Shown: piece after piece, positions 14,062-42,933 of the stretch
Layout: each line of letters opens with the position of its first letter
Numbering within the stretch: the first letter of the stretch is position 1
From: Candidatus Thorarchaeota archaeon
GTDB lineage: Archaea > Asgardarchaeota > Thorarchaeia > Thorarchaeales > Thorarchaeaceae
NCBI GenBank assembly: GCA_016839445.1
Contig: JAEOUG010000058.1
Span: forward strand, 1-52,334
Direction of reading: 5' to 3'
Length of the DNA stretch: 52,334 nucleotides
Made by a program: the position numbers and the translations under genes
Notes under the pieces: model-generated
Databases searched by the model: none
Seen by the model: the letters and a program-made list of their open reading frames with translations, nothing else
What the model was told of the DNA's origin: nothing

Positions 14062-14190
14062 GACATCGCCAAAATGATGTTATCGGTTTGAGCTTGGCAC
14101 ACCCCGAAAGCCTTAATTGTGGACCAACGAAGGCGCGCCAATACTCCGATATGCTGACTTGCCTAATCGACTGGGGGCTGTGCTCGTCTA

Positions 14191-14952
14191 TTGATTGAGA
14201 TTCTCGTTGTGCTGATTGTGTTGGCATTCATTACGGAGTACTTCACTGCCACACTAGGAATGGGTTACGGCACAATGCTAGCACCCGTTCTCTTGATGAT
14301 TGGCTATGAGCCCGCAGTACTTGTCCCAGTTGTCTTGGTCAGCCAATTCCTTGCGGGACTCGTGTCTGGCAGCTTCCACCATCGGTTCCGCAATATGGAT
14401 CTAATAAACGAGCCTCACGAACGCGCTGCATTCGAGATTTTCTCACTCACGGGCGTGGTGGGTGTTCTGATTGCTGTACTCACTAGCATTGCTCTTCCCG
14501 TCTGGTTCGTCGAACTCTACATCGCCTCTGTGGTTGTACTGATGGGCGCTGTCATCTTGGCGAATGGAAGGACCAGCGAAGCCTTCTCGAATCGGAAACT
14601 CGGCGTCCTAGGTCTCTTCGGCGCCTTCAACAAGGGTATCTCCGGCGGCGGATACGGTCCTATCGTAACAGGCGGGCAGATTATCAGCGGTATCAAACCG
14701 CGCGCGGCAATCGCGATAACCTCCATTGTCGAGGCTGTCATGTGTGCGGTTGGATTCGTCGTGTATCTGATGATTTCTCAGTCCATTGATTTACTTCTGA
14801 CCCTGGGAATCATCATAGGCGCAGTGTTGGCCGCTCCCTTTTCAGCACTCACTACGGCAAAGGTGTCGCAGGAGCGGCTCAAGAAGGCGATCGCAGTCGC
14901 CACAATCGCGCTGGGCATTGTCACTGCTCTGTGGGTTCTCACTGCTGCATAG
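14191..14952 (+). CDS. TauE/SafE (TSUP) sulfite/organosulfur exporter family
   Basis: LGMGYGTMLAPVLL and KGISGGGYGP repeats; about 8 TMs. Confidence 0.85.
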   Translation: MIEILVVLIVLAFITEYFTATLGMGYGTMLAPVLLMIGYEPAVLVPVVLVSQFLAGLVSGSFHHRFRNMDLINEPHERAAFEIFSLTGVVGVLIAVLTSIALPVWFVELYIASVVVLMGAVILANGRTSEAFSNRKLGVLGLFGAFNKGISGGGYGPIVTGGQIISGIKPRAAIAITSIVEAVMCAVGFVVYLMISQSIDLLLTLGIIIGAVLAAPFSALTTAKVSQERLKKAIAVATIALGIVTALWVLTAA

Positions 14953-14969
14953 GCATGTGGTGTGCAGGA

Positions 14970-15482
14970 CTACGTCTCTTCTTCTTTTGAGTCAGTTACA
15001 AAGGGGTGGTTTCTGAAGTAGTCCTTCCTCAGCTCGATAGCTTCCTCAATATCCTGGCGTCGCTCTGGTCGCATTCGCTGGATTTGCGAGTAGTACTCCT
15101 TAGTTTCTTCGATCTCTTTAGTGTCTAATCCGTGTTGCAGAGATAATTGCTCCAGCGCATCTAGCATTGTTGAGTAGATTGGAAACCAGAAAATGTGGTC
15201 CTTTGGGCTTGGCACATACATGTAGGGATTCCGTTCCTGAGTCACCTCTTGGGAGGCGGCCCACATCACTAGCACTCTGTCGTAGATGTACCCCATGATG
15301 AGGAAGACGAACAGGATCAGACCCGCGAATGCAAGAGGCCCGAGTGCACCCATGTTGAAGAAGAAGGGAACATACCCCACATAGAGACCTGCGAGAACCA
15401 TGACACCATAGAAGAGACCCCAGATTCCTCTAATCTGCAAGATTCTCCATTGCTGTTTCATAAGCCACTTTCTTATTCTCAA
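14970..15482 (-). CDS. Hypothetical membrane protein (one copy of the KWxMKQxWR...YD..W...ERNPY domain)
   Basis: Two TMs; clear paralogy to both halves of 15479..16534. Confidence 0.75.
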   Translation of the reverse strand: MRIRKWLMKQQWRILQIRGIWGLFYGVMVLAGLYVGYVPFFFNMGALGPLAFAGLILFVFLIMGYIYDRVLVMWAASQEVTQERNPYMYVPSPKDHIFWFPIYSTMLDALEQLSLQHGLDTKEIEETKEYYSQIQRMRPERRQDIEEAIELRKDYFRNHPFVTDSKEEET

Positions 15483-16534
15483 TTCAATCGTGCCTCCTCA
15501 GTTGTTACTCTGAACGTATCTCCGAACTCACGGCGCAACTCTCTTGCTCTCTTCATGTCCCCATCCTGAGCGACATCGAGACTGAAGTACTCCTGGAGGA
15601 ATTCCATAATCTTGTCAACCTTCGACGTGTCTAGCCCATCCCTTTCGAGCAGTTGCCTCAAGATGGTGAACATGGTGTAGTAGAATGGCATGAAGAGCGT
15701 ATACAGACTTGGCTCGGCTAGGTAGCTGTACGGGTTCCGCTCGATTCTGACAGTGGTGTCGACAGACCAGATGTACAGCTTTCTGTCGTAGAACCATCCA
15801 ACCGCTGTTATCATGAAGAGAATCGGGATAGTCACGATGAAGATGCCAAGGATGAGATATGCTACTGGCACCATCCCGTCCGTGACTACATCTGGGAACA
15901 GGAACACTACATAGACTCCAGCAATGACCAGAGAGTCCTGCGCCATTCCTGTGAGTTCCTGCACCCAGTTAAGCCGCAGGGTCTGGGTCTCGAATCCGAG
16001 CATGGCTCTTGATCGAAGGCCGACCTTTCCGCTCTCAGGGTCCCCGGTAGGATTGAACGGATGGTTTCTCATGTATTCCTCCCCAAGACTCTGCGCTGCG
16101 TTGATGTCATCCTTCTCAGGTCTGAATGTGTAGTTCTTGGCTAGGTACTTCTCCAGCTCTCCTAGCGACTTGTCGTCTATTCCAAGCTTCCTGAACAGAC
16201 TGTGGAAACTAGAGATGGCAATGTAGAGAACTGGGTATTCGAGAGCGTACGCCTTGTAGTTGGGAACGCATCTATACGGGTTCCTGTCAATATTCACCTG
16301 GAGCTTTGCTCTCCACATCCTTGCCTTCTCATCGTACAGCCAACCGATACCCATGAAGATGAGAATCAGTACACCGCCGAGAAGTACGGCGCCGAGGAAG
16401 CCCAGGTCCGCCAGAATGGGGATTTCCTCGTAGTAGACCCTGCCAAGTGCGAGCATTCCCATCCCGAGACTCATCCATGCTCGAATGGTGCCCATCCGCC
16501 AGTACTGCTTCATAATCCACTTGGCTATGCTCAA
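15479..16534 (-). CDS. Hypothetical membrane protein with two tandem copies of the same domain
   Basis: GWLYDEKARMW...DRNPY and GWFYDRKLYIW...ERNPY repeats; 4-bp overlap with the downstream paralog. Confidence 0.75.
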   Translation of the reverse strand: MSIAKWIMKQYWRMGTIRAWMSLGMGMLALGRVYYEEIPILADLGFLGAVLLGGVLILIFMGIGWLYDEKARMWRAKLQVNIDRNPYRCVPNYKAYALEYPVLYIAISSFHSLFRKLGIDDKSLGELEKYLAKNYTFRPEKDDINAAQSLGEEYMRNHPFNPTGDPESGKVGLRSRAMLGFETQTLRLNWVQELTGMAQDSLVIAGVYVVFLFPDVVTDGMVPVAYLILGIFIVTIPILFMITAVGWFYDRKLYIWSVDTTVRIERNPYSYLAEPSLYTLFMPFYYTMFTILRQLLERDGLDTSKVDKIMEFLQEYFSLDVAQDGDMKRARELRREFGDTFRVTTEEARLN

Positions 16535-16641
16535 ACTCGTTTCGCTCCGGGCGTCTGCCTCACCGATTGCTGACGTTGTTTTAAACTCTGTGCACTGTCA
16601 AGACACTATCGTTGGTTTGAGAGATGTACGCCCACTATTTC

Positions 16642-17619
16642 CTAGTGATAGTAGGGTATCATCCTGTTCAAGATGTAGCCCTTGGGCCTCTCCCCAGAAA
16701 CGGGCCAGAGGAACTCCCTATCGGGCTTCATTGGCTTGTACTTGAACTCCTTGAGGATGAACGGGAAGAGCCTATTGACAAGATGCACTTCAAGATGTGT
16801 GATTTCCTTCTTCCAGAGGTGCAGATTCTTCGCAGATATGCCTGAGAACTTCAGTCCCCTGCTGCTATTGCCTTCCCATGCCTCTCCCATTGTCGTGGGC
16901 TGGAGTACGGATTCGTCAAATGGAATCTCAACCACCTTGCACATCCTCCGGACTGTTTCTTCTGGTTTGGTTAACAGGTCTTCGTACCGGATTACGAGGT
17001 AGTCTTCGCCCAGAATCTCTCTGTTGTGATGTAGCCTGTAGTAGCTATTCTCCAATGACCTGAGCGCATTGCCAAGGAACGGGTAGGGGCGCCCATCTAT
17101 CCTCATGTATCTCCTGATGGAGACCAGGTTGGAATAGGGGTTTCTGAGAACATGGAGGAACTTCGCGTCTGGAAACATCGACTTGAGATGCAGAGCGAAC
17201 TCAGTGTGCTCCACGGACTTCTCCACGAACCGCAGGTTGCCTGGCATGTCTTCTCTGGTCAGTGCCGAATACGATGCCTCAACGTAGTGAAGCAGTAACT
17301 CGCGCATCGATTCAGCGGGCTCTGCCATCACGTTTCTGAACCGATCAATGTCAAGTTTGCCGCGCAGGTCAGAGTCACCCATTCTCCCTCCCATTGTGTT
17401 CACTCGATGTGCATAGTCAGTGTATGCGTCCCTGATTTCTTGCAGGTCGAGTCGAGGAGGTCTCGCCTTGCGAAGCCTGTAGTCCACCCACTCACTTGCG
17501 TACTGGAAGATGTGCATCTCAAATGGAACAACGTAAAGGCCCGGACTTCCATCCAGAAGGTTCCTGACCAGACTCGTTCCTGATTTGTGCGGGCCAAGAA
17601 TGAAGATTGGAGCTTTCAT
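16642..17619 (-). CDS. Sulfotransferase (Sulfotransfer_3-like)
   Basis: 5'-PSB loop ILGPHKSGTSLV, EKS, 3'-PB motif RNPYSNLVS, RYEDL. Confidence 0.9.
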   Translation of the reverse strand: MKAPIFILGPHKSGTSLVRNLLDGSPGLYVVPFEMHIFQYASEWVDYRLRKARPPRLDLQEIRDAYTDYAHRVNTMGGRMGDSDLRGKLDIDRFRNVMAEPAESMRELLLHYVEASYSALTREDMPGNLRFVEKSVEHTEFALHLKSMFPDAKFLHVLRNPYSNLVSIRRYMRIDGRPYPFLGNALRSLENSYYRLHHNREILGEDYLVIRYEDLLTKPEETVRRMCKVVEIPFDESVLQPTTMGEAWEGNSSRGLKFSGISAKNLHLWKKEITHLEVHLVNRLFPFILKEFKYKPMKPDREFLWPVSGERPKGYILNRMIPYYH

Positions 17620-17700
17620 GATGTCATTGCCACCACGGAGGAATGACTACGCGTGTGGCTCAATTGATGGGTGCTATAAAGCCTTCTGACACATGTGGTC

Positions 17701-18513
17701 CTATTCCACAGATGGCGGCTCATACCCGTATTTGTGGATGATGAACTCCTCCGCCCTCCGTACAAGATCGATGGTGTCTGAGTCGTAGTAGTGGCTTACG
17801 CTATGCCGCTCTGATCTGTTCACCTTCTTCCTCGAGCCCTCTCTGATTGTGCTCTTCATCTCATCGGTCAGTTCGTGACCCGACTTCTCCATTGCCTCGA
17901 TGAGGTCCTCTTCGAGAGACTCAACTCTCACCAAGAGGTCGATAAGGCAGTGCTCTTCATCGTACTCCTGCAGTTTCTGCAGACTATGAATGCCGGTGAA
18001 CACGTCGTCATCGAAGAAGTCTTTCAGGAACAACTTGCAGTAACGATACGTCATGAACCCAGCGAATCCACTTGTCGCTGACTCATGATACCGCTCTCCA
18101 AGGTCTCTGTGATGTCTTGGGTCCATCACCATTCGGAGCCATTTCCGAAACTTGGAGGCATCCATAGAGTCCCCATACACAGAGCTCCATTCTCCAACGG
18201 GCTTTCTGAGCTCGTGCATGCCGTGGCTAATCGCTCCTTTCCCTATTCTCCTCAGTCCTAGCCCGGTCGACTTCTTCGTGAGTCTGTCATAGAGCCCTCC
18301 CTTATCGTTGCTCCCGTACGCCCAGAGCGATACATACCAGTCCCAAGGGTTCCTGATGCTACCCATAATCATCTTCTCTGAGGAGTAATCGGTGAGCCAG
18401 CTGTGTTTTGGCTTCACCTGTCTTCCTCCCACCGTCTTGTCAAGGAGTTGAGCTATGTGTGTGCAAGCTGACTTCTGAAGTTGAAGGAAGATTATCCTGT
18501 CCGTTTCAAACAC
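17701..18513 (-). CDS. Sulfotransferase-like protein (Sulfotransfer_2 type)
   Basis: IFLQLQKSACTHI, SIRNPWDWYVSLW, RVESLEEDL, VNRS...HYYD...YGY. Confidence 0.75.
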   Translation of the reverse strand: MFETDRIIFLQLQKSACTHIAQLLDKTVGGRQVKPKHSWLTDYSSEKMIMGSIRNPWDWYVSLWAYGSNDKGGLYDRLTKKSTGLGLRRIGKGAISHGMHELRKPVGEWSSVYGDSMDASKFRKWLRMVMDPRHHRDLGERYHESATSGFAGFMTYRYCKLFLKDFFDDDVFTGIHSLQKLQEYDEEHCLIDLLVRVESLEEDLIEAMEKSGHELTDEMKSTIREGSRKKVNRSERHSVSHYYDSDTIDLVRRAEEFIIHKYGYEPPSVE

Positions 18514-18525
18514 GCATATCCACCT

Positions 18526-19464
18526 TCAGGCATCATCTTTCTCGAAGAGCTTCAGCATCTTCTCCCCCGTTCTCTCAGCGGTATAGCCGTCGAGGATCGT
18601 CTGTCGAAGGTCCTTCTTCAACTGCATCTTCTCCTCGGCGTTCTTCTGTTTGAACTCCTCAATGAGGTCGATGAGTTCGGAATCGTACCTGTAAGTGAGT
18701 TCCTCGGGGACAAACTCAAGGATGCAGGGGATTCTATGTACGAACGGAATGAGCCCCGACAGCATTGCCTCGGCGATGGCAACTCCGAATGATTCATCGA
18801 GCGCATGATGGATGTAGTATTCCATCTCCCATTGCCACTCGGGGAAGGAAACGTTGGGTTCCAGTACATGGCTCAACCCGTACTCCTTCGCCCTCTCCAC
18901 GATTATTCGCTCCTCGGCGGAGTAGCCTCCTATGTGAAGCTGGTAGTCGCGAAGAGCGAGCATGAGGGAGTAGATCCGCTTTCTGGGAGTTGGGAGTGAC
19001 CACGTGCATATCTTGCCAGAACTACTCGGATGGAACGGCCACTTCTCAGCGTTGACCCCCGGCGGAATGACTTCTATGGGTACAGACTTAGGCACGAACT
19101 CCCTGAGTAGCTCCCCGTAGTGCGTGGAGACCGCGATGACTGCCTTCACATTATCCCAGTCCACGCCTTTGAAAATCGGCGGATGATCCAGCTCCGTTCT
19201 GTGAATCCTCATGTAGATTGGCTTCGTGGAGTTGTGACTGACCTTGTGTCCCAACTCGTCGAGGAAATCTACAAAGACGACATCGGCCCATTTGGAGAGG
19301 GACCGTATCTTCCTCCCTATTGTTGCGAACCATCTTCCCTTGCTGACCATGGACCCGAAGTTGAACGAGCTACTCCGCGGTGGAGACACGATTCGAGTGT
19401 CAAAAGGCTCTGTCCACTTCAGGAACGTTGTGTTCCCAGTGAATACTGCAAGTTTCTTCGTCAT
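18526..19464 (-). CDS. Glycosyltransferase family 4
   Basis: VIAVS...VIPPGV...ESFGVAIAEAMLSG. ATG 19464 chosen because the longer ORF overlaps the opposite-strand gene. Confidence 0.85.
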   Translation of the reverse strand: MTKKLAVFTGNTTFLKWTEPFDTRIVSPPRSSSFNFGSMVSKGRWFATIGRKIRSLSKWADVVFVDFLDELGHKVSHNSTKPIYMRIHRTELDHPPIFKGVDWDNVKAVIAVSTHYGELLREFVPKSVPIEVIPPGVNAEKWPFHPSSSGKICTWSLPTPRKRIYSLMLALRDYQLHIGGYSAEERIIVERAKEYGLSHVLEPNVSFPEWQWEMEYYIHHALDESFGVAIAEAMLSGLIPFVHRIPCILEFVPEELTYRYDSELIDLIEEFKQKNAEEKMQLKKDLRQTILDGYTAERTGEKMLKLFEKDDA

Positions 19465-19581
19465 CGCCAGTACCCTGCCCACAGATGATGTGGTTTCTTT
19501 ATACTTTATCATCTCTTCGCAGAGAGGCTGCGGCGAGAGAAGCTTTAACAACAGGGAGTTTCGCCACCGCATGAGGCCAAA

Positions 19582-20481
19582 ATGCTCAACGAGATCTTGT
19601 TTCCGAGGCGGTTCACGAAGACCACTGGGTTCTGGGCTCGTACTCTCCGGAGGATATCCAAGTATGGTTTCGTGAGGAGAGGACTGCTGGCTGTTGTCTC
19701 GTTGGCGGGAGGATTTAGGAATCGAGGCAGGTACGCGCAGGTTCAGCGTTACTGCATGTTTGTGGGCTACCCAAGAAGCGGCCATAGCCTCGTAGGGTCA
19801 TTTGTTGATGCCCATCCGAATGCAGTGATCTCACATGAACTCGATGCTCTCGATTTTGTGGAGAGAGGCTATGGAAGGAATAGGCTCTTCTACTTGATCA
19901 CTAGGAATTCCTACGAGTTCGGGAAAGTCGGAAGGTCATGGACAGGCTATTCCTACGATGTGAAGGGCCAATGGCAGGGAGGATACAACGAAGTCCTGAC
20001 TGTCCTTGGTGACAAGAAGGGCGGGATGAGTTCACGACGCCTCGAAAGCGATCCCGAGCTATTGGAGTCGCTGCATAGCATGACGGGCGTGCCAATCCAG
20101 ATCATCCATGTAGTAAGAAATCCCTTTGATAACATCAGCACGATATCTAACCGAAACAAGATTCCATTGGAGGAGGCCATCGAGTTCTACTTCTCTCTGT
20201 GTGACACCAACAAGGCTGTGAAGGCGAAGTCAGACGATGCACACTTCCTTGAGTTCAGGTTGGAGGAGCTCGTCGAGAAGCCTCGCGAGATTGTCCAGCG
20301 AATCTGTGGTTTCTTGGAACTTGAGGCAGACTCCGGCTACCTCTCAGCCTGCGAGGCACTCCTCTTCGAAAAGCCTCGGAGAACAAGAGACTCGGTACAG
20401 TGGGACCGAAGCCTGATAGAGCTGGTACTCGTTCGGGCAAAGGAATACGACTTCCTGGAAGGGTACGACTTCGAGAACTGA
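19582..20481 (+). CDS. Sulfotransferase
   Basis: FVGYPRSGHSLVGSFVDAHPNAVI, GDKKG, HVVRNPFDNIST. Confidence 0.88.
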   Translation: MLNEILFPRRFTKTTGFWARTLRRISKYGFVRRGLLAVVSLAGGFRNRGRYAQVQRYCMFVGYPRSGHSLVGSFVDAHPNAVISHELDALDFVERGYGRNRLFYLITRNSYEFGKVGRSWTGYSYDVKGQWQGGYNEVLTVLGDKKGGMSSRRLESDPELLESLHSMTGVPIQIIHVVRNPFDNISTISNRNKIPLEEAIEFYFSLCDTNKAVKAKSDDAHFLEFRLEELVEKPREIVQRICGFLELEADSGYLSACEALLFEKPRRTRDSVQWDRSLIELVLVRAKEYDFLEGYDFEN

Positions 20482-20535
20482 AGGAGCAACGAAACGTATT
20501 TATCGCCCCCACTGGCCTGACCGCGTCGAACCAAG

Positions 20536-21648
20536 ATGGCCGGGCCCGTTTCTAGTTCTTCCCTATTCGGACACGTCCGGAAGCTCTTCTCTCATATCAG
20601 AAAACGTCTGCCCATCTACTTCGTACTGATGGTGGTCATCTTCGGAGTTCTGTTCGTCTTCCGCGACGAGATCTACGACAATCTCATTGAGCGACACGAA
20701 GCCGAGAATGCCGTCTCTTTTACACCGGAAGGGATTCCAATCACCGACTATGGGTGGAAACAGGGTAGATATGTTGGGCCAGTGATTAGTCCCCTCCATG
20801 TCGGCAACTGGGCCCAGACTTACTACAATCAGAGTCTGTACGGTAACACCACTGCCGGCGTATACTTCAACAACACAATCCAGTGGTTCCTGGATAATCG
20901 AGTGACAAATGAGATTGATGATGGCGGTGGTCCTGTCAACGTCAGTCACTGGATCTACAACTATGCAATCTATGACATGCCGGCTGGCTGGCGGTCCGCA
21001 ATGGCGGATGCTGAGATTCTTCATGCCCTTGCTCTTGCGTACGACTTGTACGAGAACCCCCTCGTGCTTCAGGTCTGTGACGAGGTCCTCAATGGCTTTG
21101 AGATTTCTCAGGACCTGGGAGGGAATGTCCTCGATCTCAGTGACGGGGGTGCATGGTATCCTGAGGTCATAGTCCCTGCATCACTCGACCCGACCTATCC
21201 TCACAGAAGGATTCTCAATGGGTTCCTCTTTGCTGTGGAGGACCTCTACGCAACCTATGAGCTACTGAACGAGACACGCGTCCTGACACTGTTCAATCTT
21301 GGCGTCACATCGGCTCTGGAACACATGGATTTGTACGAGTCCCCAAGGAATTGGACCTACTACCAGCTTGACCCAGAGAAGCTAGCATCTGTTCACTATC
21401 ACGGAGTCCACATACGACTCACTCAGAGCCTCTACCAGATCACAAACGACAGCACGTTCTTGGAATACAGTCAGCGCTGGGCTGGATGGACTCAGTATCC
21501 AGAGGATCCTTGGTGGGTTCTTACGCCTCGTCTGATGCTGGAAATCCAATTCGGGTTGCTCTTCATGGGTATCGCGGCGTTAGCCATCTTGGGACTTGAC
21601 CTTCTCCAGATGCACATTAGAGACCGTCTTCGTAGGAACCGCGTCTGA
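20536..21648 (+). CDS. D-glucuronyl C5-epimerase family protein, anchored by N- and C-terminal TMs
   Basis: GWRSAMA, WYPE, ILNGFLFAV, WTYYQL, ASVHYHGVHIRL, RW: the C5-epim_C motif series. Confidence 0.8.
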   Translation: MAGPVSSSSLFGHVRKLFSHIRKRLPIYFVLMVVIFGVLFVFRDEIYDNLIERHEAENAVSFTPEGIPITDYGWKQGRYVGPVISPLHVGNWAQTYYNQSLYGNTTAGVYFNNTIQWFLDNRVTNEIDDGGGPVNVSHWIYNYAIYDMPAGWRSAMADAEILHALALAYDLYENPLVLQVCDEVLNGFEISQDLGGNVLDLSDGGAWYPEVIVPASLDPTYPHRRILNGFLFAVEDLYATYELLNETRVLTLFNLGVTSALEHMDLYESPRNWTYYQLDPEKLASVHYHGVHIRLTQSLYQITNDSTFLEYSQRWAGWTQYPEDPWWVLTPRLMLEIQFGLLFMGIAALAILGLDLLQMHIRDRLRRNRV

Positions 21649-21659
21649 GCTGTCTGGAC

Positions 21660-22658
21660 TCACTCTGCGGGTTTGGAGAACCTGTAGATGCCCCGTATCT
21701 TGCCTTCGTTCCTCTCCCACACATAGTTCTCTCTAGCATGAGCCATTATTTCAGCTGAGTCTTGCTCAGGAAGATCTGAAAGGACTTGAGGAAGGTCCTC
21801 GTACGAGTCAAACTCGTGTACATATGGGTCCGCCTTGAACGGCTCTTTGAGCGTAGATGTCAGTAAGACTTGGAGCCCTGCATTCAGGTACTCGTAGTTC
21901 TTGTTGGGGTCGCAGTACCTGTGGAAGGGATGAGGTCTCCACGGAGTGAGCCCGATTCTGTATTCTGTCAGGCCAATCATCATCTCCGGGTGAGGTACAC
22001 CTGATATGATGTTGAAGTCTACTGCATCTTTCAGACCTGTCATATCGCGGTGTGGAGTGAACTTGTCGAACTTGAAGTCACTACCAACGTAGACTAGGCC
22101 CTTCCTCCCCTCCGGGTCTGGCAGGTCGATGACCTCTGATGTTAGCGGGAAGTTGCCTGTGACCTCCACATGTTTCGATCTCTGCCTGTGCTCCGCCGCT
22201 ATGTTCTCGCTCACTGTCAGAACTGGGTATCTCTCCAGCAGGTGTTGCTCCCAACTCGGTGTCACTCTGACGAGTGGCTTGCCAGATATCCTCCTCACCA
22301 GACTTCTGTTTGAGAAGCGGAAGTCCTGCTTGCTCCAGTATTCGTGGTCGTCATAGACCACAGGGTATTCGGTCTCAAGCATCATGGCTGCGGCAATGAC
22401 ATTGTTGGCATGGACGATGTCCGGGTTGATTTCGTCTATGGCTTTGAGCCATCGCTTCTTGAAGCGCGGATCCAGTACCACGCGAAAGTGGTTTACAACG
22501 GGAATGTGATAGGTGGCAGAGAAGGCTCCGTAGTCTTGTCGGCTTGTAGGATGGCCACCCAGGAATAGCAGTTCGTGTCCTTCATTCTTCATGACGAGAG
22601 CTGTCTTCTCGATTCTTGCATCTGGGAGCCCTCCGTGAGAAGTGTGAAGAATCCTCAT
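21660..22658 (-). CDS. Glycosyltransferase (GT4-like)
   Basis: DARIEK, PDIVHAN, VVYDDHE, PNKNYEYLNAGL. Confidence 0.82.
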   Translation of the reverse strand: MRILHTSHGGLPDARIEKTALVMKNEGHELLFLGGHPTSRQDYGAFSATYHIPVVNHFRVVLDPRFKKRWLKAIDEINPDIVHANNVIAAAMMLETEYPVVYDDHEYWSKQDFRFSNRSLVRRISGKPLVRVTPSWEQHLLERYPVLTVSENIAAEHRQRSKHVEVTGNFPLTSEVIDLPDPEGRKGLVYVGSDFKFDKFTPHRDMTGLKDAVDFNIISGVPHPEMMIGLTEYRIGLTPWRPHPFHRYCDPNKNYEYLNAGLQVLLTSTLKEPFKADPYVHEFDSYEDLPQVLSDLPEQDSAEIMAHARENYVWERNEGKIRGIYRFSKPAE

Positions 22659-22672
22659 GTCCTGTCCTCTCG

Positions 22673-23779
22673 CTATTCGACCATCATCGACCTCTTGGTC
22701 TGTATCTCTCCTGAGGAGAGTATCTCTGCTATTCTCTCTGCTGCTCTGCCATCACCGTAGACCGAGGCATCATTGTTGGTCTTCAGTCCCCACATCTTCA
22801 GGGCCTTAGTCGATACATCCTCTGCCGTGGGGAGTGCGAGAATGTTTGCTCCTGCCTCTATGGTCTCGACCCACTCGGTGTTGTCCCTGATTGTGACGCA
22901 AGGCGTGTTCAGGAGATATGCCTCCTTTTGGAGACCTCCCGAGTCCGTTATGAGAAGGTCCGATTTGCTCACAAGAGCCATCATTGTTGTGTAGGGCACA
23001 GGGTCAACGACCTCGAGATTCTTGGGAATCTGGATTCCTGTTTCCTCCAGTCTCTTCTTGGTTCGGGGGTGCATCGGGAAGACTATCTTGCGAGAAACCG
23101 TAGCTAGCCCCTTCATGATTCCTGTCAGACGATCAGGAATGTCTACGTTCTCCCTTCGGTGAAGGGTGAGTACTGCAAAGGAACCCTCGGATATCCCTAC
23201 TTTCTTCATCTCTTCTTCTTGGTATGATGAGTTGCTGAATATCGGCAGGCGGTTCTGGAGGATGTCATACATCGTGTCGCCAGTGAGGAATACTGAGCCG
23301 ATGACATTCTCCTTCTCCAGATTCTCCACTGCGATTTTCGTAGGGGCGAAGAGACCTGTTGCACCGTGGTCGACAAGCCTTCTGTTGATCTCTTCCTGCA
23401 TGTACATATCATAGCTACGAAGCCCCGATTCGAGATGACATGTCGGAATGTCCATCTTGAAGCCAGCCAGGGCGGCGCCGAGGGCGGAGTTGGTGTCACC
23501 CGGGACTACGAGGTAGTCAGGCCTCTCTCTCTCGAGTTCTCTCTCCAATCTTGATATGACCTCGTATGTCTGATACGCACTTGTTCCACTGCCCACCTCA
23601 AGGTTGCAGTCAGGCTTAGGAATCTCGAGCTCCTCGATGAACTGTGCAGCCAACTGGAAGTCGTAGTGTTGCCCAGTATGGATGAACCGCGTTGTCACGC
23701 CTCCCTCTTGAAGAGCCAGCAGCAGTGGCGCCGACTTGATTATTTGCGGCCGTGTGCCAGTTACGAGCGTGACAATCAT
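22673..23779 (-). CDS. wecB: UDP-N-acetylglucosamine 2-epimerase (non-hydrolysing), copy 1
   Basis: GTRPQIIK, HTGQHYD, PGDTNS, HLESGLRS, EEINR, TLHRREN, TDSGGLQKEA, YGDG. Confidence 0.93.
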   Translation of the reverse strand: MIVTLVTGTRPQIIKSAPLLLALQEGGVTTRFIHTGQHYDFQLAAQFIEELEIPKPDCNLEVGSGTSAYQTYEVISRLERELERERPDYLVVPGDTNSALGAALAGFKMDIPTCHLESGLRSYDMYMQEEINRRLVDHGATGLFAPTKIAVENLEKENVIGSVFLTGDTMYDILQNRLPIFSNSSYQEEEMKKVGISEGSFAVLTLHRRENVDIPDRLTGIMKGLATVSRKIVFPMHPRTKKRLEETGIQIPKNLEVVDPVPYTTMMALVSKSDLLITDSGGLQKEAYLLNTPCVTIRDNTEWVETIEAGANILALPTAEDVSTKALKMWGLKTNNDASVYGDGRAAERIAEILSSGEIQTKRSMMVE

Positions 23780-23935
23780 TTTCCGCAGCCCACCAGAAGA
23801 CGAAGAGATACAGGGTTTGTGATGAGTCCCCTTGGCTTAACTATTGAACGTTATGGTAGAAGGGGAATGCATAAGAACAGGACCAGCGGAAGTGGCACTC
23901 ACCATCACACGGAAACAGGTCCGCGGAGGAACCAC

Positions 23936-24991
23936 TTGTTGGTCAAGAAACGAGTTCTCCTCATAGGCACAGAACCCGAACGGATGATTCGACTGCAGAG
24001 AGTCCTCCAGAGCATGCGGAAGCTCGGCATCGATGTCCGTGTGCTTGAACCTGTTACGAAACCCCGCGGGAGACCCCGGATACTCAAGGGAATGATTCGC
24101 TATCTGACTATTACCTTCCAGATTCTCCTTGCTAGAGCAGACATCTACCACTTCTTCAACGTCCCTGACAACGTTGGCCTTCCGCTCACACTAAAGCGAG
24201 GCACACTGGTCTACGACGTTCGTGCTCCATGGGCTGCCGTCCTCCGTGAGACCTTCGGTAAGTCACCGCTCATCTTCTTGGCGAAGTTCATTGAGAGGTT
24301 CATGACCAGGAAGGCCGACCATGTTGTCTGTGTCAATCGGATGTTGGCTGAGAGGGCAGTGACATGGGGCGCCAGGTCTGTCAGGGTCATCCCGAACTAC
24401 CCGTCCGAGGACTTCGGCCCCACTCGTGACCGAGCCGAGACCAGGAAAGAGCTTGGCATTGATGACTCCTCAGTAGTGCTGTATCTCGGGAAGCTCTCAA
24501 AGGTTGAGGGTGTCGACCTGCTGATGGAGGTGATTCGATCGGCTACCCGACTGACGCCCAAGGTGAAGTTCCTCGTTGTTGGTGCAGGACCGCAGGAGAG
24601 TCAATTCAAGCGGTTCGTAGAGAGAGAAGGTCTAGAAGGCAGAGTAGTCATGACAGGATGGATTCCCCACGAAGAGGTTGCGAATCTCATTCAAGCGGCA
24701 GACCTGTGCTTGCTCCCTCGCCCCTGGGACAGCTGCTCTCCCTTCATTGGGCCTGAGTCCATCTGGAAGGCAGGTGAGTATCTCTCGCTAGGGAAACCCG
24801 TGCTGGCTCCTAGGATGGGGGGTTTTGCGACTGCGCCTTTTCCCGTGATAGCAGTTGACCCGTCCGAGATGGCACAAGCAGTTGCTGAGTTCTTCAGGAG
24901 GCCCGCCACTGGGTCAGTCCAACCACATCCACGATGGCCAGAGAGCCACAGGAGACTTGAACGTCTCTACAGGAGTCTTGGTGCTCTTTAG
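23936..24991 (+). CDS. Glycosyltransferase family 4
   Basis: LVYDVR, VIPNYP, YLGKLSKVEGVDLL, GWIPHEEV, KAGEYLSLGKPV. TTG start follows GGAGG. Confidence 0.88.
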   Translation: MLVKKRVLLIGTEPERMIRLQRVLQSMRKLGIDVRVLEPVTKPRGRPRILKGMIRYLTITFQILLARADIYHFFNVPDNVGLPLTLKRGTLVYDVRAPWAAVLRETFGKSPLIFLAKFIERFMTRKADHVVCVNRMLAERAVTWGARSVRVIPNYPSEDFGPTRDRAETRKELGIDDSSVVLYLGKLSKVEGVDLLMEVIRSATRLTPKVKFLVVGAGPQESQFKRFVEREGLEGRVVMTGWIPHEEVANLIQAADLCLLPRPWDSCSPFIGPESIWKAGEYLSLGKPVLAPRMGGFATAPFPVIAVDPSEMAQAVAEFFRRPATGSVQPHPRWPESHRRLERLYRSLGAL

Positions 24992-25068
24992 GAGGTCCTC
25001 CCATCAATCGAAACGTTATAATGTCAAGTGGACCGTGAAGGCGACTTGAGCGCCAAGGAGGCTCCATC

Positions 25069-26193
25069 TTGTTCGTTACACTCGTGACTGGAACACGACC
25101 ACAGATTGTCAAGTCAGCTCCCGTTCTGCGTGCCTTGGAGGCGGCTGGCATAGAGTGTGAGTTCATTCACACAGGCCAGCACTATGACTACGAGCTGGCA
25201 GGAGCATTTGTGGACGAGTTTGAGCTTCAGAAGCCTCATGATCTGGAGGTAGGCCCCGGTGATTACTGCTTCCAGGTGTATGGCATAATGGAGCGCCTCT
25301 CAGGTCACCTTGAGAAGCGGAGGCCCGACTACCTCATCATTCCCGGTGACACAACATCTGCCTTGGGCGCCGCCATGGTGGGCTTCAAAATGGAGATTCC
25401 GGTCTGCCACCTAGAAGCCGGCCTCAGGAGATACGACTATACCTATCAAGAAGAAATGAATCGGCGTCTGATAGATCATGGGTCCTCGGGTCTCTTCGCG
25501 CCCACGGTAACTGCTGTTGAGAACCTGAAACTTGAAGACGTGCTGGGAAAGGTGTATCTCATAGGAGACACGATGTACGACATTCTGAAGCACAGGCTGC
25601 CAAGGTACTCTGATAGGGCCTTCCTAGATCATGTGCTTGAGAAGATAGGAGTTGATGTCGACGAATATGCCCTTCTTACTCTCCACCGAAGAGAGAACGT
25701 AGACTCGGAGTCTCTTCTCTCGACCATTGTATCAGCAATAAACAGGCTCGACTTCCAGATTGTATTCCCAATACATCCACGCACTCGGAAACAGCTCGAG
25801 CAGTTCTCTCTGGAATTCGATTCGTCGCATGTCCACTTGGTCGACCCCCAACCGTACGACGAGTTCATGAGCCTGGTGGCCTCATCGAGGCTTGTCATCA
25901 GTGACTCAGGAGGCGTCCAGAAGGAGTGCTATCTTCTTAATGTCCCGCTCGTGTCCCTCCATCAACGAACCGAGTGGGTAGAAACCTTCGATGCGGGGGC
26001 GAACCTCCTGACTCCAATTGCAGAAGACAGAATCGTCGAGAGCTGCAACTCAATGTACGGCAAGAGACTAACCAACGACCCGTCCGTCTATGGCGATGGC
26101 AAGGCCGCTGAGAAGATCCCCGAGATTCTGAGATCTGGTGAAATCAGGATTCCAACAGATAGAACACGCAAGCCCTTCGCTGACTACTTCTGA
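25069..26193 (+). CDS. wecB: UDP-N-acetylglucosamine 2-epimerase (non-hydrolysing), copy 2
   Basis: GTRPQIVK, HTGQHYD, PGDTTS, HLEAGLR, SDSGGVQKE, YGDG. Confidence 0.93.
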   Translation: MFVTLVTGTRPQIVKSAPVLRALEAAGIECEFIHTGQHYDYELAGAFVDEFELQKPHDLEVGPGDYCFQVYGIMERLSGHLEKRRPDYLIIPGDTTSALGAAMVGFKMEIPVCHLEAGLRRYDYTYQEEMNRRLIDHGSSGLFAPTVTAVENLKLEDVLGKVYLIGDTMYDILKHRLPRYSDRAFLDHVLEKIGVDVDEYALLTLHRRENVDSESLLSTIVSAINRLDFQIVFPIHPRTRKQLEQFSLEFDSSHVHLVDPQPYDEFMSLVASSRLVISDSGGVQKECYLLNVPLVSLHQRTEWVETFDAGANLLTPIAEDRIVESCNSMYGKRLTNDPSVYGDGKAAEKIPEILRSGEIRIPTDRTRKPFADYF

Positions 26194-26197
26194 GAAC

Positions 26198-26983
26198 TCA
26201 GTCCCAGGGCCTGTATTGCTCGCCATCGTTGTAGAACCGAAACCGGACTCCGTGTCTTCGGAGCAGGTCCTTCACCCGGTCCGTTTCCTCAGACGCAGGC
26301 CCCTCAATCTTCCTTCTCGGAAGGTCGAAGCTGGTCTTGCCCAAGGTGACCTGTGTGGCCTCCTCGTCCCTGCCTACACTGATACCGTAGAACTCTGCCT
26401 CTTTGATGATCTTGTCAACGACTGCCCGCTTCTCCTCGGCACTAACCTTGCGAGGATACGCGTTCTCCTTGAGTATCTTGACTGGTATACCCCCTGCCAG
26501 GCAGCCTGAGGGTAGGTCTCTGTTCACAAGAGACATGGCAGCAACGACCACGTTATCGCCGATTGTGACATTCGGATTGACTATTGCATATGGCAGCCAC
26601 ACATTGGAGCCAATCCTGACAGGTCCCTCTTGATATGGGAATCCATCGTATTCCGAGGGGTATGCGCCGTGCGTGAACACCTTTCCTTCCATGCCTATGC
26701 CCACTTCGTGTCCAATCTCCACATCGTGCGCAGTATTGACCATCGATCCCTTACCAAGATGCAGGAAGTCACCGGTTCTCAGGGAACCCATCTCACTCCG
26801 CCCACCACCAATGAGGACTCCTGTGGTAATCCATGCCTCTCGGCCAATCTCGATGTCACGGCCCCCTATGACGACGTTCTCACCGATCTTTGAGAAATCA
26901 CCAATCTTGATGTTCTTCGCGAGGAGTCGTGCTGACGGATGAATCACGACATCCCTGCCGAGTTCGATGTCATTCTCAGGCAA
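26198..26983 (-). CDS. Hexapeptide-repeat (LbH) sugar O-acyltransferase
   Basis: IGxxxx repeats, FTHG, PVRIGSNVWL, VTIGDNVVVAAMSLVNRDLP...GIPVK. TTG start follows GAGGTG. Confidence 0.85.
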   Translation of the reverse strand: MPENDIELGRDVVIHPSARLLAKNIKIGDFSKIGENVVIGGRDIEIGREAWITTGVLIGGGRSEMGSLRTGDFLHLGKGSMVNTAHDVEIGHEVGIGMEGKVFTHGAYPSEYDGFPYQEGPVRIGSNVWLPYAIVNPNVTIGDNVVVAAMSLVNRDLPSGCLAGGIPVKILKENAYPRKVSAEEKRAVVDKIIKEAEFYGISVGRDEEATQVTLGKTSFDLPRRKIEGPASEETDRVKDLLRRHGVRFRFYNDGEQYRPWD

Positions 26984-26996
26984 GTTTTGACACACC

Positions 26997-27662
26997 TCAC
27001 TTGGGTGGCTTGTTGAATGAGCAGACAACCCCCCTGTGCTGGGCGAAGGCTTCTGCATAAGCGGCTCCGCAGTGGTGACCTTGGTATCCCATCACCGACT
27101 TCACTGCGTTGATCGTGAAGTATCCACGGCGTTCGACTTGGGACTTGTACAGACCGAGCATCTCGATCTTCTAGTTAACCTGCTCTTCCGTCAGAGGAAC
27201 GTACACCTCGGGAGTGAACCCAGGGCTATTCCCTGCAATCTCGTACGATAGCACTGACACGTCTGTCTTCATGAATGCCCTGAAGGTCTCCTCTGCGACA
27301 ACTCTGTGGTCCTGATGGAGATCGCCCACCCATGTTGTCAGGACAAGGTCGTAGTCTTCGTCACGTCGAAGACCATAGATGGTCTCCAGAATCTCCTGTC
27401 TTCTAGCGGGGAAGTCGCGAACTGGAAGCTCGTAGATTGTCAGGTCCTTGATGCCCATGTGTTTCGCCGCGGCCTCGCATTCCTTTCGGAGAATGTCGAT
27501 TGGGTGTTTGCTTGTGTCTACGCTCTTCCTACAGTCGCTGAAGACAACTGACCTCACATTGGCGCCGCTCTCGACTAGCAGTCGGACTGTCGCTCCTGCT
27601 CCCACTTCCATGTCATCTGTGTGGGCAGAGAGCACAAGCACGTTGTCAACATTCCATATCAT
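26997..27662 (-). pseudogene. PIG-L/LmbE family N-deacetylase with an in-frame TAG at 27171-27173 (nonsense mutation, error or readthrough)
   Basis: AHTDDMEVGAG and DLHQDH. The frame continues after the TAG as KIEMLGLYKSQVERRGYF...YAEAF...KPPK to TGA at 26997-26999. Confidence 0.8.
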
Positions 27663-27729: not shown

Positions 27730-29307
27730 CTATATCAGCCCCGCCTTCTGGGCGAACTTCCGATATCCCTTCATCAAGAGCTTGACTATGTTCCTTCTGA
27801 GAACGAACTTGATCCATTGCTCTTCTGTAGGTTCCTTGAAGAAGAGGCCGAACTGAGCGGCATAGTCATCCTCTGAGTCGAATGTGGTCAGCTTCTGGAC
27901 TGCGCCTGGAGAGAAGATGAGTTCGACGTCTGGGTTCTCAGCTCTGACTGGCCTCACCTCAATCTCATCTTTGCCGACAACTTCTACGTGGAACCTCTGC
28001 CCCTCCACTTCATAATCAATAACAGCCTCTTTCTTGAGGCCCTCGAAGATCAGCGGGTGCGCCGAGAGGTACTGCATGAACTGCTTCTTCAATTCGCTCT
28101 CTGCTGCTTCTCTCTTCTTCTTTCCCTTCTGAGCATAGGGGAGTAGGAACGTTGGTAGGTCCAGAACTGGCAACTTGCTGCCGATGTGCTTGGCACCGTC
28201 TTCGAGACCTCTGTGACAGAAGGGACACGCAGTGACAAGTATCTCTGCTCCTGTTTCTTCGGCTTCGACGATGCGATTTCCTGCTACTTCATTCGCAAGG
28301 TCACCGAAGCTTCCTTTCACTCCTCCTCCAGACCCACAGCAGTGCGCGTACCTCTTGTTCGTTTCCATTTCAACAAGAGTGACATTGTCAACTGCTTCAA
28401 TGACTCTCCTGGGCGCTTCGTAGACCTCTGCGTGTCGCCCCAGGTGACAAGGGTCGTGGTACGTCACGGTGAGCTTCTTCGGTGCGGCAAAGGTCGCCTT
28501 GCCGTCCTGTACTAGTCTGTCAAGGTACTCGGTGATGTGGAGCACCTCGAAGTCGTACTTGAGATTGCGCTGTGGTACGTCAATCTTCCAGGTCCTGAAA
28601 CATCCCGCGCACGCAGTGACCAGAGTTCGAACGCCTGCCTTATTCAGAGCATCGATATTCTTTGTGGTTATCTCATCAAAGATCTTCTCGCGTCCGAGTC
28701 GAAGCAGAACGCTTCCACAGCACTCTTCGTCGGGAATGATTGTGAAGTCCACGCCCATCTTGTCCAGAAGTTCCACCGTGGTTCGAGCTATCTCCTTCTC
28801 CCTGTACGAAGATGTGCAGCCTACGAAGTATGCCACTGGGGCCTGTTCTGGCCACTCATGCTCTCCAAACAGAGCGAGTCTCTTGTCACGTGGCTCCTTG
28901 TAGGGGTTTCCGTCTGCCTTGATTGAATCCTCGATGACCGAGTGCTTCTCAAGGTCATATCCCGCCTCAACGAGGTCTCTCCGAAGGGCTTCCATCATTT
29001 CTGGAAGGCGGATTCCCTCTGCGGTTGCAGTACACGTTTCCTGGCAGTTCTTGCACGTTGTACAAGTGAACGCCCAGTCAGCAATTGCCTTGTCAATGGG
29101 GAGCTTTCCCTCAAGCAGGTCATTCATGATCATGACTCTGCCTCTGGAGGCGTACGCCTCGAAGCCGAGTACGTTCTTTATCGCGCACGGGAGGAATACA
29201 TCACGATCCGAGGCAACAGTCTTGTCTGCGAGCGAGCAGTCTCCACATCGAGCGCATAGCCACAGGTCTTCAAGATACTTGGATAGATGTTTGAACTCGG
29301 CGACCAT
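27730..29307 (-). CDS. Fe-S oxidoreductase (GlcF/HdrD-like; two 4Fe-4S motifs + two CCG domains) with a C-terminal SCP2-like domain
   Basis: CARCGDC..PC, CTTCKNCQETC, FVGC, ECCG, TACAGC, YHDPCHLGR, HCCGSGGG, TACPFC; C-terminal ENPDVELIFS. Confidence 0.85.
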   Translation of the reverse strand: MVAEFKHLSKYLEDLWLCARCGDCSLADKTVASDRDVFLPCAIKNVLGFEAYASRGRVMIMNDLLEGKLPIDKAIADWAFTCTTCKNCQETCTATAEGIRLPEMMEALRRDLVEAGYDLEKHSVIEDSIKADGNPYKEPRDKRLALFGEHEWPEQAPVAYFVGCTSSYREKEIARTTVELLDKMGVDFTIIPDEECCGSVLLRLGREKIFDEITTKNIDALNKAGVRTLVTACAGCFRTWKIDVPQRNLKYDFEVLHITEYLDRLVQDGKATFAAPKKLTVTYHDPCHLGRHAEVYEAPRRVIEAVDNVTLVEMETNKRYAHCCGSGGGVKGSFGDLANEVAGNRIVEAEETGAEILVTACPFCHRGLEDGAKHIGSKLPVLDLPTFLLPYAQKGKKKREAAESELKKQFMQYLSAHPLIFEGLKKEAVIDYEVEGQRFHVEVVGKDEIEVRPVRAENPDVELIFSPGAVQKLTTFDSEDDYAAQFGLFFKEPTEEQWIKFVLRRNIVKLLMKGYRKFAQKAGLI

Positions 29308-41821: not shown

Positions 41822-41900
41822 GACTTCAGCCTCGCATCTTCTCTCTTCTCTGTTCGGCCTATATGGCTTAGGGAAGCTACAGATAAAGCTTGGCAGTGTT

Positions 41901-42905: not shown

Positions 42906-42933
42906 ATCTATCTCACTCTTTCTTGTCTGGGGA

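Follow-up and report, generated by a model that had tools for sequence, protein, structure and literature searches.

To our knowledge, sulfated, C5-epimerised glycans have long been deemed a speciality of animals, and the archaeal cases come from haloarchaea only, where the enzymes are unrelated to the animal ones. The animal glucuronyl C5-epimerase, GLCE, works in the Golgi on the non-cytosolic side of the membrane, to which it is held by an N-terminal anchor. Here, a gene cluster is described from a stretch of 52,334 nucleotides of a Candidatus Thorarchaeota archaeon (assembly GCA_016839445.1, contig JAEOUG010000058.1; the whole stretch is hereafter called the window), in which a gene for a GLCE-family epimerase stands beside three genes for sulfotransferases of the type that depends on 3'-phosphoadenosine-5'-phosphosulfate (PAPS). 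The cluster probably directs a sulfated acidic surface chain that is built with enzyme families of heparan sulfate and is itself probably not heparan-like.

The nearest functional analogue is the N-glycan pathway of Halobacterium salinarum, in which the adjacent sulfotransferases Agl30 and Agl31 and the glucuronyl C5-epimerase Agl32 serve a dolichol-linked N-glycan (PMC11980604, PMC12624080). Agl30 and Agl31 are described as having an alkaline-phosphatase/sulfatase fold and Agl32 as AglQ/AGE-like (PMC11980604, PMC12624080), and Agl32 is described as being without the catalytic residues of GLCE (PMC13308652). The thorarchaeal locus is similar in being an archaeal locus with at least two sulfotransferase genes beside a C5-epimerase gene and, as proposed here, in making a lipid-linked acidic oligosaccharide. 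Sulfation in Halobacterium is reported to be cytoplasmic and to precede translocation (PMC11980604, PMC12624080), and the same side of the membrane is proposed for the thorarchaeal enzymes. The two systems differ in that the thorarchaeal sulfotransferases are of the PAPS type and the epimerase belongs to PF06662, the GLCE family, the families of Agl30-32 being those of the papers' descriptions; moreover, the thorarchaeal epimerase is predicted to face outward and to act after sulfation rather than before. In Pfam, the proteins of the window matched Sulfotransfer and C5-epim_C models and not the families of sulfatases or alkaline phosphatases. By this analogy, the thorarchaeal cluster would reach a similar end with animal-type families.

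With animal heparan maturation (NDST, GLCE and HS2ST/HS6ST/HS3ST), the cluster shares the epimerase and sulfotransferase families and the donor PAPS, and its epimerase is likewise predicted to lie on the non-cytosolic side behind an N-terminal anchor. Unlike the animal system, it has no polymer synthase, no fused NDST and no beta-hairpin or beta-sandwich domain detectable with Pfam. The equivalent of GLCE residue Y500 is missing, the identity to GLCE is 22-23%, and the uronic acid is probably N-acetyl-D-mannosaminuronic acid (ManNAcA). The sulfotransferases are predicted to be cytosolic, on the opposite side of the membrane from the epimerase, and the order of the steps would therefore differ from that of heparan maturation.

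In Vibrio cholerae, conversion of lipid-linked ManNAcA to N-acetyl-L-gulosaminuronic acid (L-GulNAcA) has been proposed after the VpsA, VpsB and VpsK steps (PMC13463779, PMC3901696). The Vibrio polysaccharide system (VpsA/VpsB/VpsK and VpsJ) resembles the one proposed here in its WecB and WecC homologs leading to UDP-ManNAcA, in C5 epimerisation at the glycan level, in glycosyltransferase family 4 (GT4) steps and in acetylation (PMC13463779). VpsJ is described as a new epimerase class that acts before further cytoplasmic steps (PMC13463779); judged by that description, the thorarchaeal enzyme differs in being a predicted ectoenzyme of the GLCE family, and sulfation is an addition of its cluster. 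In the wall polymer of Halococcus, gulosaminuronic acid occurs together with abundant sulfate (PMC4187196).

Archaeal PF06662 genes have been predicted since 2011, when Raedts et al. named prokaryotic candidates in Methanocaldococcus, Methanothermobacter, Thermococcus and Korarchaeum (PMC3068255). Methanocaldococcus jannaschii also matched PF06662 in a control search made here. Like those candidates, the thorarchaeal proteins are short, with an N-terminal signal or anchor and a C-terminal GLCE domain; they differ in forming a separate clade of Thorarchaeota and Hodarchaeota (the Thor/Hod clade). For the archaeal candidates of 2011, the available text gives no known substrate and does not mention a linkage to PAPS sulfotransferases (PMC3068255). 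A limited literature search, which covered Asgard archaea and Thorarchaeota as well as archaeal PAPS sulfotransferases, returned no description of such a cluster.

The cluster and the proposed pathway

The window is contig C18 of the metagenome-assembled genome (MAG) G000, which comprises 190 contigs and 2.91 Mb. The cluster is flanked by the archaeal markers Nre, topoisomerase VI, Cdc48 and RpoH, and public runs with near-identical contigs, from several studies, are labelled marine sediment and mangrove metagenome. The gene list of the initial annotation (three sulfotransferases, a C5-epimerase, a PIG-L protein, an acyltransferase, three GT4 proteins and two wecB copies between 16642 and 27662) was confirmed in full by the list of open reading frames (ORFs), Pfam and NCBIfam, and the cluster was found to reach left to 13201. 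The genes at its centre are the following.

16642-17619, minus strand: sulfotransferase 1, PAPS type (Sulfotransfer_3), Pfam E 4.9e-29, both PAPS motifs
17701-18513, minus strand: sulfotransferase 2 (270 aa), a divergent relative of Sulfotransfer_2, assigned by family, motifs and model fold
19582-20481, plus strand: sulfotransferase 3, a weak match (Sulfotransfer_3 E 1.7e-8, Sulfotransfer_1 E 6e-8), above cut-off
20536-21648, plus strand: GLCE-family uronyl C5-epimerase with a predicted two-helix anchor, PF06662 (C5-epim_C) E 1e-33

In a sister genome, a separately assembled contig of 103 kb has two sulfotransferases, the phosphatase described below, the epimerase, GTb, wecB and GTc adjoining. 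Since this independent contig keeps the genes side by side, their linkage is neither chance nor an assembly effect. Three syntenic loci come from Thorarchaeota MAGs. For comparison, 87 genomes of the class were searched; a strong PF06662 match was obtained in nine of them, giving nine epimerase loci. The locus is best described as a variable surface-glycan locus of a Thorarchaeial (Asgard) archaeon, probably for an N-glycan or another lipid-linked oligosaccharide.

The reading first proposed from the sequence, in which a surface glycan is sulfated and carries a uronic acid epimerised at C5, remains the most economical. In the form favoured here, to which a probability of roughly 0.6 is assigned, a lipid-linked ManNAcA-type oligosaccharide is sulfated in the cytoplasm and C5-epimerised outside the cell by the GLCE-family enzyme. 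The proposal is built on gene identities, folds, motifs, synteny and co-occurrence. WecB enzymes would supply UDP-ManNAc, from which a WecC-like dehydrogenase (encoded on another contig here and within the cluster in sister genomes) would form UDP-ManNAcA. An Alg13/14-like pair and three GT4-like enzymes, working at the cytoplasmic face, would then assemble a short, lipid-borne acidic oligosaccharide, which would be trimmed on that side by the PIG-L de-N-acetylase and an acetyltransferase. The three cytosolic PAPS-dependent sulfotransferases would sulfate the chain with PAPS made by sat-cysC products encoded elsewhere in the genome, while a CysQ-like phosphatase would clear the by-product 3'-phosphoadenosine-5'-phosphate (PAP) and a TauE permease would bring in sulfate. 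After export, the membrane-held epimerase would invert a uronic acid residue of the completed glycan at C5; the reaction would most likely be D-ManNAcA to L-GulNAcA, with glucuronic acid (GlcA) to iduronic acid (IdoA) as the alternative. The substrates, the order of the steps, the topology, the carrier lipid and the final acceptor are predictions of this scheme. The fullest version, in which the ectoenzyme converts ManNAcA to L-GulNAcA on a glycan that is already sulfated and exported, is put forward tentatively and is, taken as a whole, rather doubtful.

The epimerase

The epimerase, present in one copy in the genome, scored 116.9 bits against C5-epim_C (cut-off 23.3) and matched human GLCE in phmmer with an E of 1.3e-8. 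Its AlphaFold model, with a mean confidence (pLDDT) of 82.3, was aligned by VIA-align with human and zebrafish GLCE (entries 6HZZ, 6I01, 6I02, 4PXQ and 4PW2) at Z 26.0-26.5 over 239-240 residues, with a root-mean-square deviation of 3.0-3.1 and 22-23% identity. The next fold, that of other (alpha/alpha) barrels, followed at Z 16.0, which is 10 Z units under GLCE, and the top eight Foldseek matches were GLCE throughout.

The catalytic residues of GLCE are given, in human numbering, as E499, Y500, N510, Y560 and Y578 (PMC13308652). E499, N510, Y560 and Y578 align with E210, N228, Y275/Y276 and Y288 of the thorarchaeal protein, the pairing of Y560 with Y275 or Y276 being ambiguous by one residue owing to an alignment gap. 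E210 and N228 are conserved in 17/17 members of the clade and Y276 and Y288 in 16/16. The position of Y500 is taken by V211 (among 17 clade members, 11 have V there, four have I and two have Y), in a part of the alignment that is uncertain because it adjoins a 7-residue insertion. With V or I in 15 of the 17, the catalytic mechanism may differ from that of GLCE or the activity may not be epimerisation.

The replacement of one of five GLCE catalytic residues would be accounted for if the protein were some other outward-facing (alpha/alpha)-barrel, such as a lyase, a hydrolase, a chain-processing factor or a binding protein. The fold class also houses the glycoside hydrolases GH8 and GH76 and 2-epimerases, at Z 14-16, and no archaeal PF06662 protein has been characterised; in the available text of one report, Agl32, of a different family, is called the first archaeal enzyme of this kind (PMC12624080). 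This explanation is nonetheless improbable: GLCE stands 10 Z units above all other folds, E210, N228, Y276 and Y288 are conserved entirely or almost entirely throughout the clade, and a uronate-forming dehydrogenase is embedded in three of the four sister clusters examined, which gives a GLCE-like protein a plausible substrate.

Pfam found no Glce_b_sandwich in the epimerase; the animal beta-hairpin and beta-sandwich domains were thus not detected, and the ectodomain has only about 280 residues. Hydrophobic segments were found at residues 21-48 and 332-361; K/R-rich stretches precede the former and follow the latter, on what are predicted to be the cytoplasmic sides. Between the two segments lie seven N-x-S/T sequons (1.89 per 100 aa), and each clade member has 5-10. 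For comparison, the density is 0-0.72 sequons per 100 aa in the 13 other proteins that were scanned from 13201-27662, and the maximum over all 22 other proteins scanned is 1.33, in the Alg13-like protein. Both hydrophobic segments recur in 59 of 113 related representatives of 290-400 aa. From these features, the epimerase is predicted to be anchored N-in/C-in through a membrane helix at either end and to expose its catalytic barrel to the exterior.

Near relatives of the epimerase are named Thorarchaeota, Hodarchaeota and Promethearchaeota by their sources, and the thorarchaeal proteins already carry the NCBI name 'D-glucuronyl C5-epimerase family protein'. The Thor/Hod clade forms a separate group of about 32 sequences. 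When representatives were ranked by the clade profile, metazoan GLCE did not appear in the top 150, which means that at least 150 representative clusters score better. A 590-aa representative was considered as a GLCE candidate and was found not to be GLCE-like beyond an E of 6e-17. As far as the sequences go, the evidence does not show a special evolutionary tie of this locus to the animal pathway.

The sulfotransferases

All three sulfotransferases match the 5'-PSB-like and 3'-PB-like patterns used for scoring, which we take to represent the 5'-phosphosulfate- and 3'-phosphate-binding motifs, so the initial assignment of three PAPS-motif proteins holds for each; in sulfotransferase 3, the motifs read PRSGHS and RNPFDNIS. 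The Pfam cut-off was passed by two of the three. The exception, sulfotransferase 2, gave no Pfam match at E<=0.01 and reached Sulfotransfer_2 at E 0.043 in the genome scan. Its family counts 458 homologs; six of 38 aligned members match PF03567 (best E 1.4e-7), and K14, R54 and S62, all of which lie within the two PAPS-binding motifs, are invariant. When its model (pLDDT 95.3) was compared by VIA-align, all 50 entries listed were PAPS sulfotransferases, at Z 8.9-10.3, with heparan 2-O- and 6-O-sulfotransferases (Z 10.2-10.3) tied with cytosolic SULTs. The same model found nothing in Foldseek at E<=0.001, and the family profile reached E 0.07-0.5 at best against PDB sequences, one match being a sulfotransferase segment.

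By sequence, the closest solved relatives of sulfotransferase 1 are CurM/OLS and tyrosylprotein sulfotransferases (TPST), and no heparan enzyme was matched. Sulfotransferase 3 had no significant match among solved-structure sequences and has a full-length ortholog with 57.6% identity in the sister locus L009. In that locus (L009:2711-5436, sister genome G045), an FkbH-domain protein of 616 aa and a 295-aa protein adjoin two sulfotransferases and have no counterpart in the window. A hydropathy script of our own found no hydrophobic segment in the three window sulfotransferases, as expected because the PAPS that they use is cytosolic, and they look cytosolic.

The sulfotransferases might be mere neighbours that act on lipids, small metabolites or protein tyrosines, with the glycan left unsulfated. 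The nearest solved relatives of sulfotransferase 1 indeed have a polyketide intermediate and protein tyrosine as their acceptors, six of the nine epimerase-bearing genomes have no sulfotransferases, and the FkbH-domain gene adjoins the sulfotransferases of L009. Such a role in isolation is quite unlikely in view of the gene order, as in two independent assemblies the sulfotransferase genes do not sit at one edge but are interspersed among those for glycosyltransferases, the epimerase and the phosphatase. A pair of membrane proteins, moreover, accompanies the epimerase here and sulfotransferases elsewhere in the class, and Pfam found no polyketide or lipid-synthesis gene in the window.

The initial annotation had spoken of a 'heparan-sulfate-like toolkit' and a 'glycosaminoglycan-like matrix'. 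On that view, the product would be a heparan-sulfate-like glycosaminoglycan polymer of an extracellular matrix, in which GlcNAc is N-deacetylated and N-sulfated, GlcA is epimerised to IdoA and O-sulfation follows. The families of heparan maturation are present (GLCE-family epimerase, PAPS sulfotransferases, PIG-L deacetylase), the model of sulfotransferase 2 shares its top rank with the heparan 2-O- and 6-O-sulfotransferases, and a bacterial PF06662 enzyme has been reported active on a heparan-type substrate (cited in PMC12624080). These labels did not hold up, and a heparan-like polymer is now very improbable. The window lacks synthase or polymerase, chain-length and export genes, and the nearest relatives of sulfotransferase 1 are CurM/OLS and TPST. 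The Z values of sulfotransferase 2 are equally shared by cytosolic SULTs, metazoan GLCE is absent from the top 150 representatives by the clade profile, and the cell membrane is predicted to separate the epimerase (outside) from the sulfotransferases (inside). Two further points, the type of dehydrogenase and the distribution of PIG-L, are taken up below.

Sulfate activation and recycling

It had been stated that the window holds no PAPS synthesis genes. As regards sat and cysC, this is correct: both were found by the genome search on contig C26 of the same genome, where sat (ATP sulfurylase, E 4e-92) adjoins cysC (adenosine-5'-phosphosulfate kinase, E 3e-59), and the genome is thus not devoid of PAPS synthesis, the lack of which had been named as a refutation of the first reading. 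The window does hold other putative genes of the PAPS cycle, which had been overlooked.

13201-14061, minus strand: CysQ-like protein of the inositol-monophosphatase family (286 aa), Pfam Inositol_P E 1.4e-21
14191-14952, plus strand: TauE/SafE-family anion permease, Pfam TauE E 9.7e-23

On C26, a fourth sulfotransferase (389 aa, Sulfotransfer_3) follows directly after sat-cysC on the same strand. Upstream of sat-cysC (G000:C26:15000-32000, locus L007) lie an ABC-2 type transporter pair and a 989-aa Big_7-domain protein, the latter with a sub-threshold match to the GLCE beta-sandwich domain (E 2.2e-5, 25 bits vs a cut-off of 27).

Across the class, strong cysC (E<=1e-55) was found in 19 of the 87 genomes, all of them among the 26 with Sulfotransfer_3, and in none of the 61 without it; kinship makes the genomes non-independent samples, and these co-occurrence counts are to be read as a pattern and not as a statistic. 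Since strong cysC is confined to genomes with Sulfotransfer_3, PAPS is apparently made for sulfotransfer in this lineage and seems to serve that purpose.

For the phosphatase, the best NCBIfam model is CysQ TIGR01331, at 44.7 bits far under the cut-off of 228.8; the equivalog test thus failed, and the Inositol_P superfamily match alone is significant. Its orthologs occur in 13/87 genomes, 13/13 of them with Sulfotransfer_3 and 0/61 among the sulfotransferase-free ones, and the gene directly adjoins cysC in at least eight of its 13 genomes. The distribution points to a PAP phosphatase of the sulfation cycle. In many class genomes, including those of other genera (examples are G056:C6, G007:C35, G062:C86 and G078:C73), orthologs of the permease (E<=1e-72) are encoded no more than a few kb from cysC, the phosphatase and sulfotransferases, and the protein may take up sulfate for PAPS synthesis.

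The uronic acid

One strong nucleotide-sugar dehydrogenase is encoded in the genome; its gene lies on contig C28, with a third wecB some 4 kb away. The enzyme scored 368.8 bits on the archaeal UDP-ManNAc dehydrogenase model vs 206-214 on UDP-glucose dehydrogenase models (206 on AglM). A nucleotide-sugar dehydrogenase lies inside the cluster in three of the four sister loci scanned by Pfam, and these proteins scored 376-387 bits on the UDP-ManNAc dehydrogenase model vs 195-245. Because all of these scores fall under the equivalog cut-off (750), the label is kept at 'WecC-like'. The suggested search for dehydrogenases therefore produced one strong candidate, of the UDP-ManNAc type, and none of the UDP-glucose type, which in a genome that is about 90% complete also speaks against a heparan-like chain. 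The earlier observation that wecB points to ManNAc(A) units and away from heparan is strengthened by these scores, in the genome and in three sister clusters.

Taken together, the WecC-like dehydrogenase and wecB favour ManNAcA over other candidate substrates; it is probably the uronic acid of the chain, and the epimerase reaction is most likely D-ManNAcA to L-GulNAcA. Conversion of GlcA to IdoA is kept as a lesser possibility because some 10% of the genome is missing.

Epimerase loci across the class

Several of the nine epimerase loci are on very short contigs, and the absence of a gene from a locus is therefore weak evidence. The most constant neighbour of the epimerase is the GT4-like gene at 21660-22658, with counterparts in 8/9 loci, followed by the GT4 gene at 23666-24991 (6/9, and one weak match), wecB (5/9) and PIG-L (3/9). 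Sulfotransferases and the phosphatase stand beside the epimerase in 2/9 loci, those of the window and of G045. The conserved core thus comprises the epimerase and GT4 proteins, with wecB and the WecC-like dehydrogenase as frequent companions, and sulfation appears as an add-on to an epimerase-centred glycan module, given that sulfotransferases occur in few of the epimerase loci and genomes.

In G004 and G005, PIG-L accompanies the epimerase and sulfotransferases are absent. PIG-L is therefore not tied to sulfation, which argues against a heparan-like chain and against the NDST-like logic of deacetylation followed by N-sulfation on which the initial annotation had drawn; that logic is also weakened by the pairing of epimerase and sulfotransferases in only two of the nine loci. 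In the sulfotransferase-free locus of G005 (L029:1497-8257), an asparagine-synthase-type amidotransferase and an ATP-grasp enzyme lie beside the WecC-like dehydrogenase and PIG-L, which suggests that the uronic acid there is amidated or amino-acid-decorated instead of sulfated.

Weak PF06662 matches were also seen in 12 further genomes of the class. They belong to 354-aa cytosolic proteins beside other sugar genes and were not counted as epimerases because the clade profile misses them.

Several points weigh against the proposed pathway. Any Sulfotransfer_3 gene at all is present in just three of the nine epimerase-bearing genomes, and sulfation and epimerisation are consequently not obligatorily coupled. 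The organism is uncultured and its MAG has a completeness of 89.8% and a contamination of 6.45%; a UDP-glucose dehydrogenase could lie in the missing 10%. To the replaced Y500 and the dehydrogenase scores below cut-off must be added that the topology comes from a hydropathy and sequon script of our own making and not from a trained predictor. The window has no flippase, polymerase or oligosaccharyltransferase, and AglB is on a separate contig of 8.8 kb. Among the public runs searched for the stretch, no RNA run contains it.

Other genes of the cluster and the window

The remaining genes of glycan assembly and their neighbours are listed here.

14970-15482, minus strand: membrane protein of 170 aa, one repeat unit, a paralog of the 351-aa gene, two hydrophobic segments
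15479-16534, minus strand: membrane protein of 351 aa, two copies of a unit of ~170 aa, without family match
18526-19785, minus strand: GT4-like (weak), true start probably inside the ORF, Glyco_transf_4 E 4e-4, Glycos_transf_1 E 1.4e-3, below cut-off
21660-22658, minus strand: GT4-like, N-terminal domain match only, Glyco_transf_4 E 6.8e-8
22673-23779, minus strand: wecB copy 1, UDP-GlcNAc 2-epimerase, TIGR00236 at 290.8 bits (cut-off 210)
23666-24991, plus strand: GT4, true start probably ~90 codons in, Glycos_transf_1 E 2.2e-17
25069-26193, plus strand: wecB copy 2, UDP-GlcNAc 2-epimerase, TIGR00236 at 268.4 bits, above the equivalog cut-off
26198-27058, minus strand: hexapeptide left-handed beta-helix acetyltransferase, WcaF-like, Hexapep E 3.2e-13, WcaF E 2.3e-17 (below cut-off)
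26997-27662 (ORF listed as 27171-27662), minus strand: PIG-L/LmbE-family de-N-acetylase, PIG-L E 4.5e-17, HTDD and HQDH motifs
30835-31287, minus strand: Alg13-like half of a split glycosyltransferase (PssE/Cps14G type), Glyco_tran_28_C E 2.6e-11, PssE E 8.2e-32
31284-31760, minus strand: Alg14-like membrane-associated half of a split glycosyltransferase, Alg14 E 2.1e-19, PssD E 8.4e-31

The window thus holds four or five glycosyl-transfer functions, including the Alg13/Alg14-like pair. For the ORF at 18526-19785, a homolog in G082 matches 314 of 419 residues, and the 5' end as listed runs into the conserved beginning of the sulfotransferase 3 gene. The protein of 21660-22658 had no significant match in the PDB by phmmer. 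For 23666-24991, the L009 ortholog matches 348 of 441 residues, and the nearest solved relatives are BshA and GT4 enzymes of the PimB' type. The hexapeptide acetyltransferase was present, among the loci compared, in that of the window only.

The ORF of PIG-L stops at an in-frame TAG (27171-27173) after codon 163, and its homologs have at least 216 aa. Beyond the TAG, 55 conserved codons continue in the same frame down to 26997, and the contigs of 3/3 covering runs, from three studies, have AAG at this codon (lysine, as in the homologs). A reading of TAG as pyrrolysine was considered and rejected, as no PylS was found above cut-off, aragorn found no tRNA with a CUA anticodon among 19 tRNAs, and the runs have AAG. 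The TAG is most likely an assembly error or a rare allele and the PIG-L gene whole.

The Alg13/Alg14-like pair is syntenic in two sister loci, L009 and L011, and in a published phylogeny the Alg13 of Thorarchaeota is placed beside eukaryotic Alg13 (PMC8993221). Pfam found no polymerase, chain-length regulator, ABC exporter, Wzx-type flippase or heparosan-type synthase in the window. A short lipid-linked oligosaccharide, possibly an N-glycan, would fit this inventory best.

The two membrane proteins of 170 and 351 aa gave no Pfam or NCBIfam match. A search of the ESM Atlas with the 351-aa protein was uninformative (best 0.80-0.81, no family). The pair occurs in 27/87 class genomes, always together and often beside Sulfotransfer_3 genes or the epimerase, and a part in glycan translocation or scaffolding may be guessed.

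Between PIG-L and the Alg13/14-like genes (27730-30744, minus strand) lie a GlcD-like FAD oxidase and a CCG-domain iron-sulfur protein. The two also adjoin a GT4 gene in G005, with 69-76% identity, and are not found in the G045 locus; they probably form an unrelated dehydrogenase of the lactate/glycolate type. Farther away, a gene at 9511-10071 (plus strand) encodes an Rpb5/RpoH C-terminal domain fused to an N-terminal Mrr-type restriction-endonuclease-like domain. At 41438-43614 (minus strand), a Roadblock/LC7 protein is found beside a 334-aa protein without family and a 226-aa coiled-coil protein, and at 50254-52332 (plus strand), a homolog of GH38 alpha-mannosidase continues past the end of the window.

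Implications

The cluster combines animal-type families, a GLCE-fold epimerase and PAPS sulfotransferases, in a surface-glycan locus of an Asgard archaeon, and the cluster families are accompanied by a dedicated set for sulfate activation and PAP recycling. It offers a gene set that can be expressed, made up of the ectodomain of the epimerase (some 280 residues), the three sulfotransferases, which are small and soluble, and a candidate PAP phosphatase, and it provides a candidate route to L-gulosaminuronic acid. Should the epimerase prove to be an ectoenzyme acting on ManNAcA, the range of substrates of the GLCE family would be extended by a new specificity. If the proposed pathway is correct, it would be the first in Archaea by which glycans undergo PAPS-type sulfation and would supply an enzymology for sulfated gulosaminuronate polymers such as that of the Halococcus wall. 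With an Asgard host and eukaryote-like Alg13/14, it could then also bear on the origin of the Golgi-type split between PAPS sulfation and non-cytosolic epimerisation.

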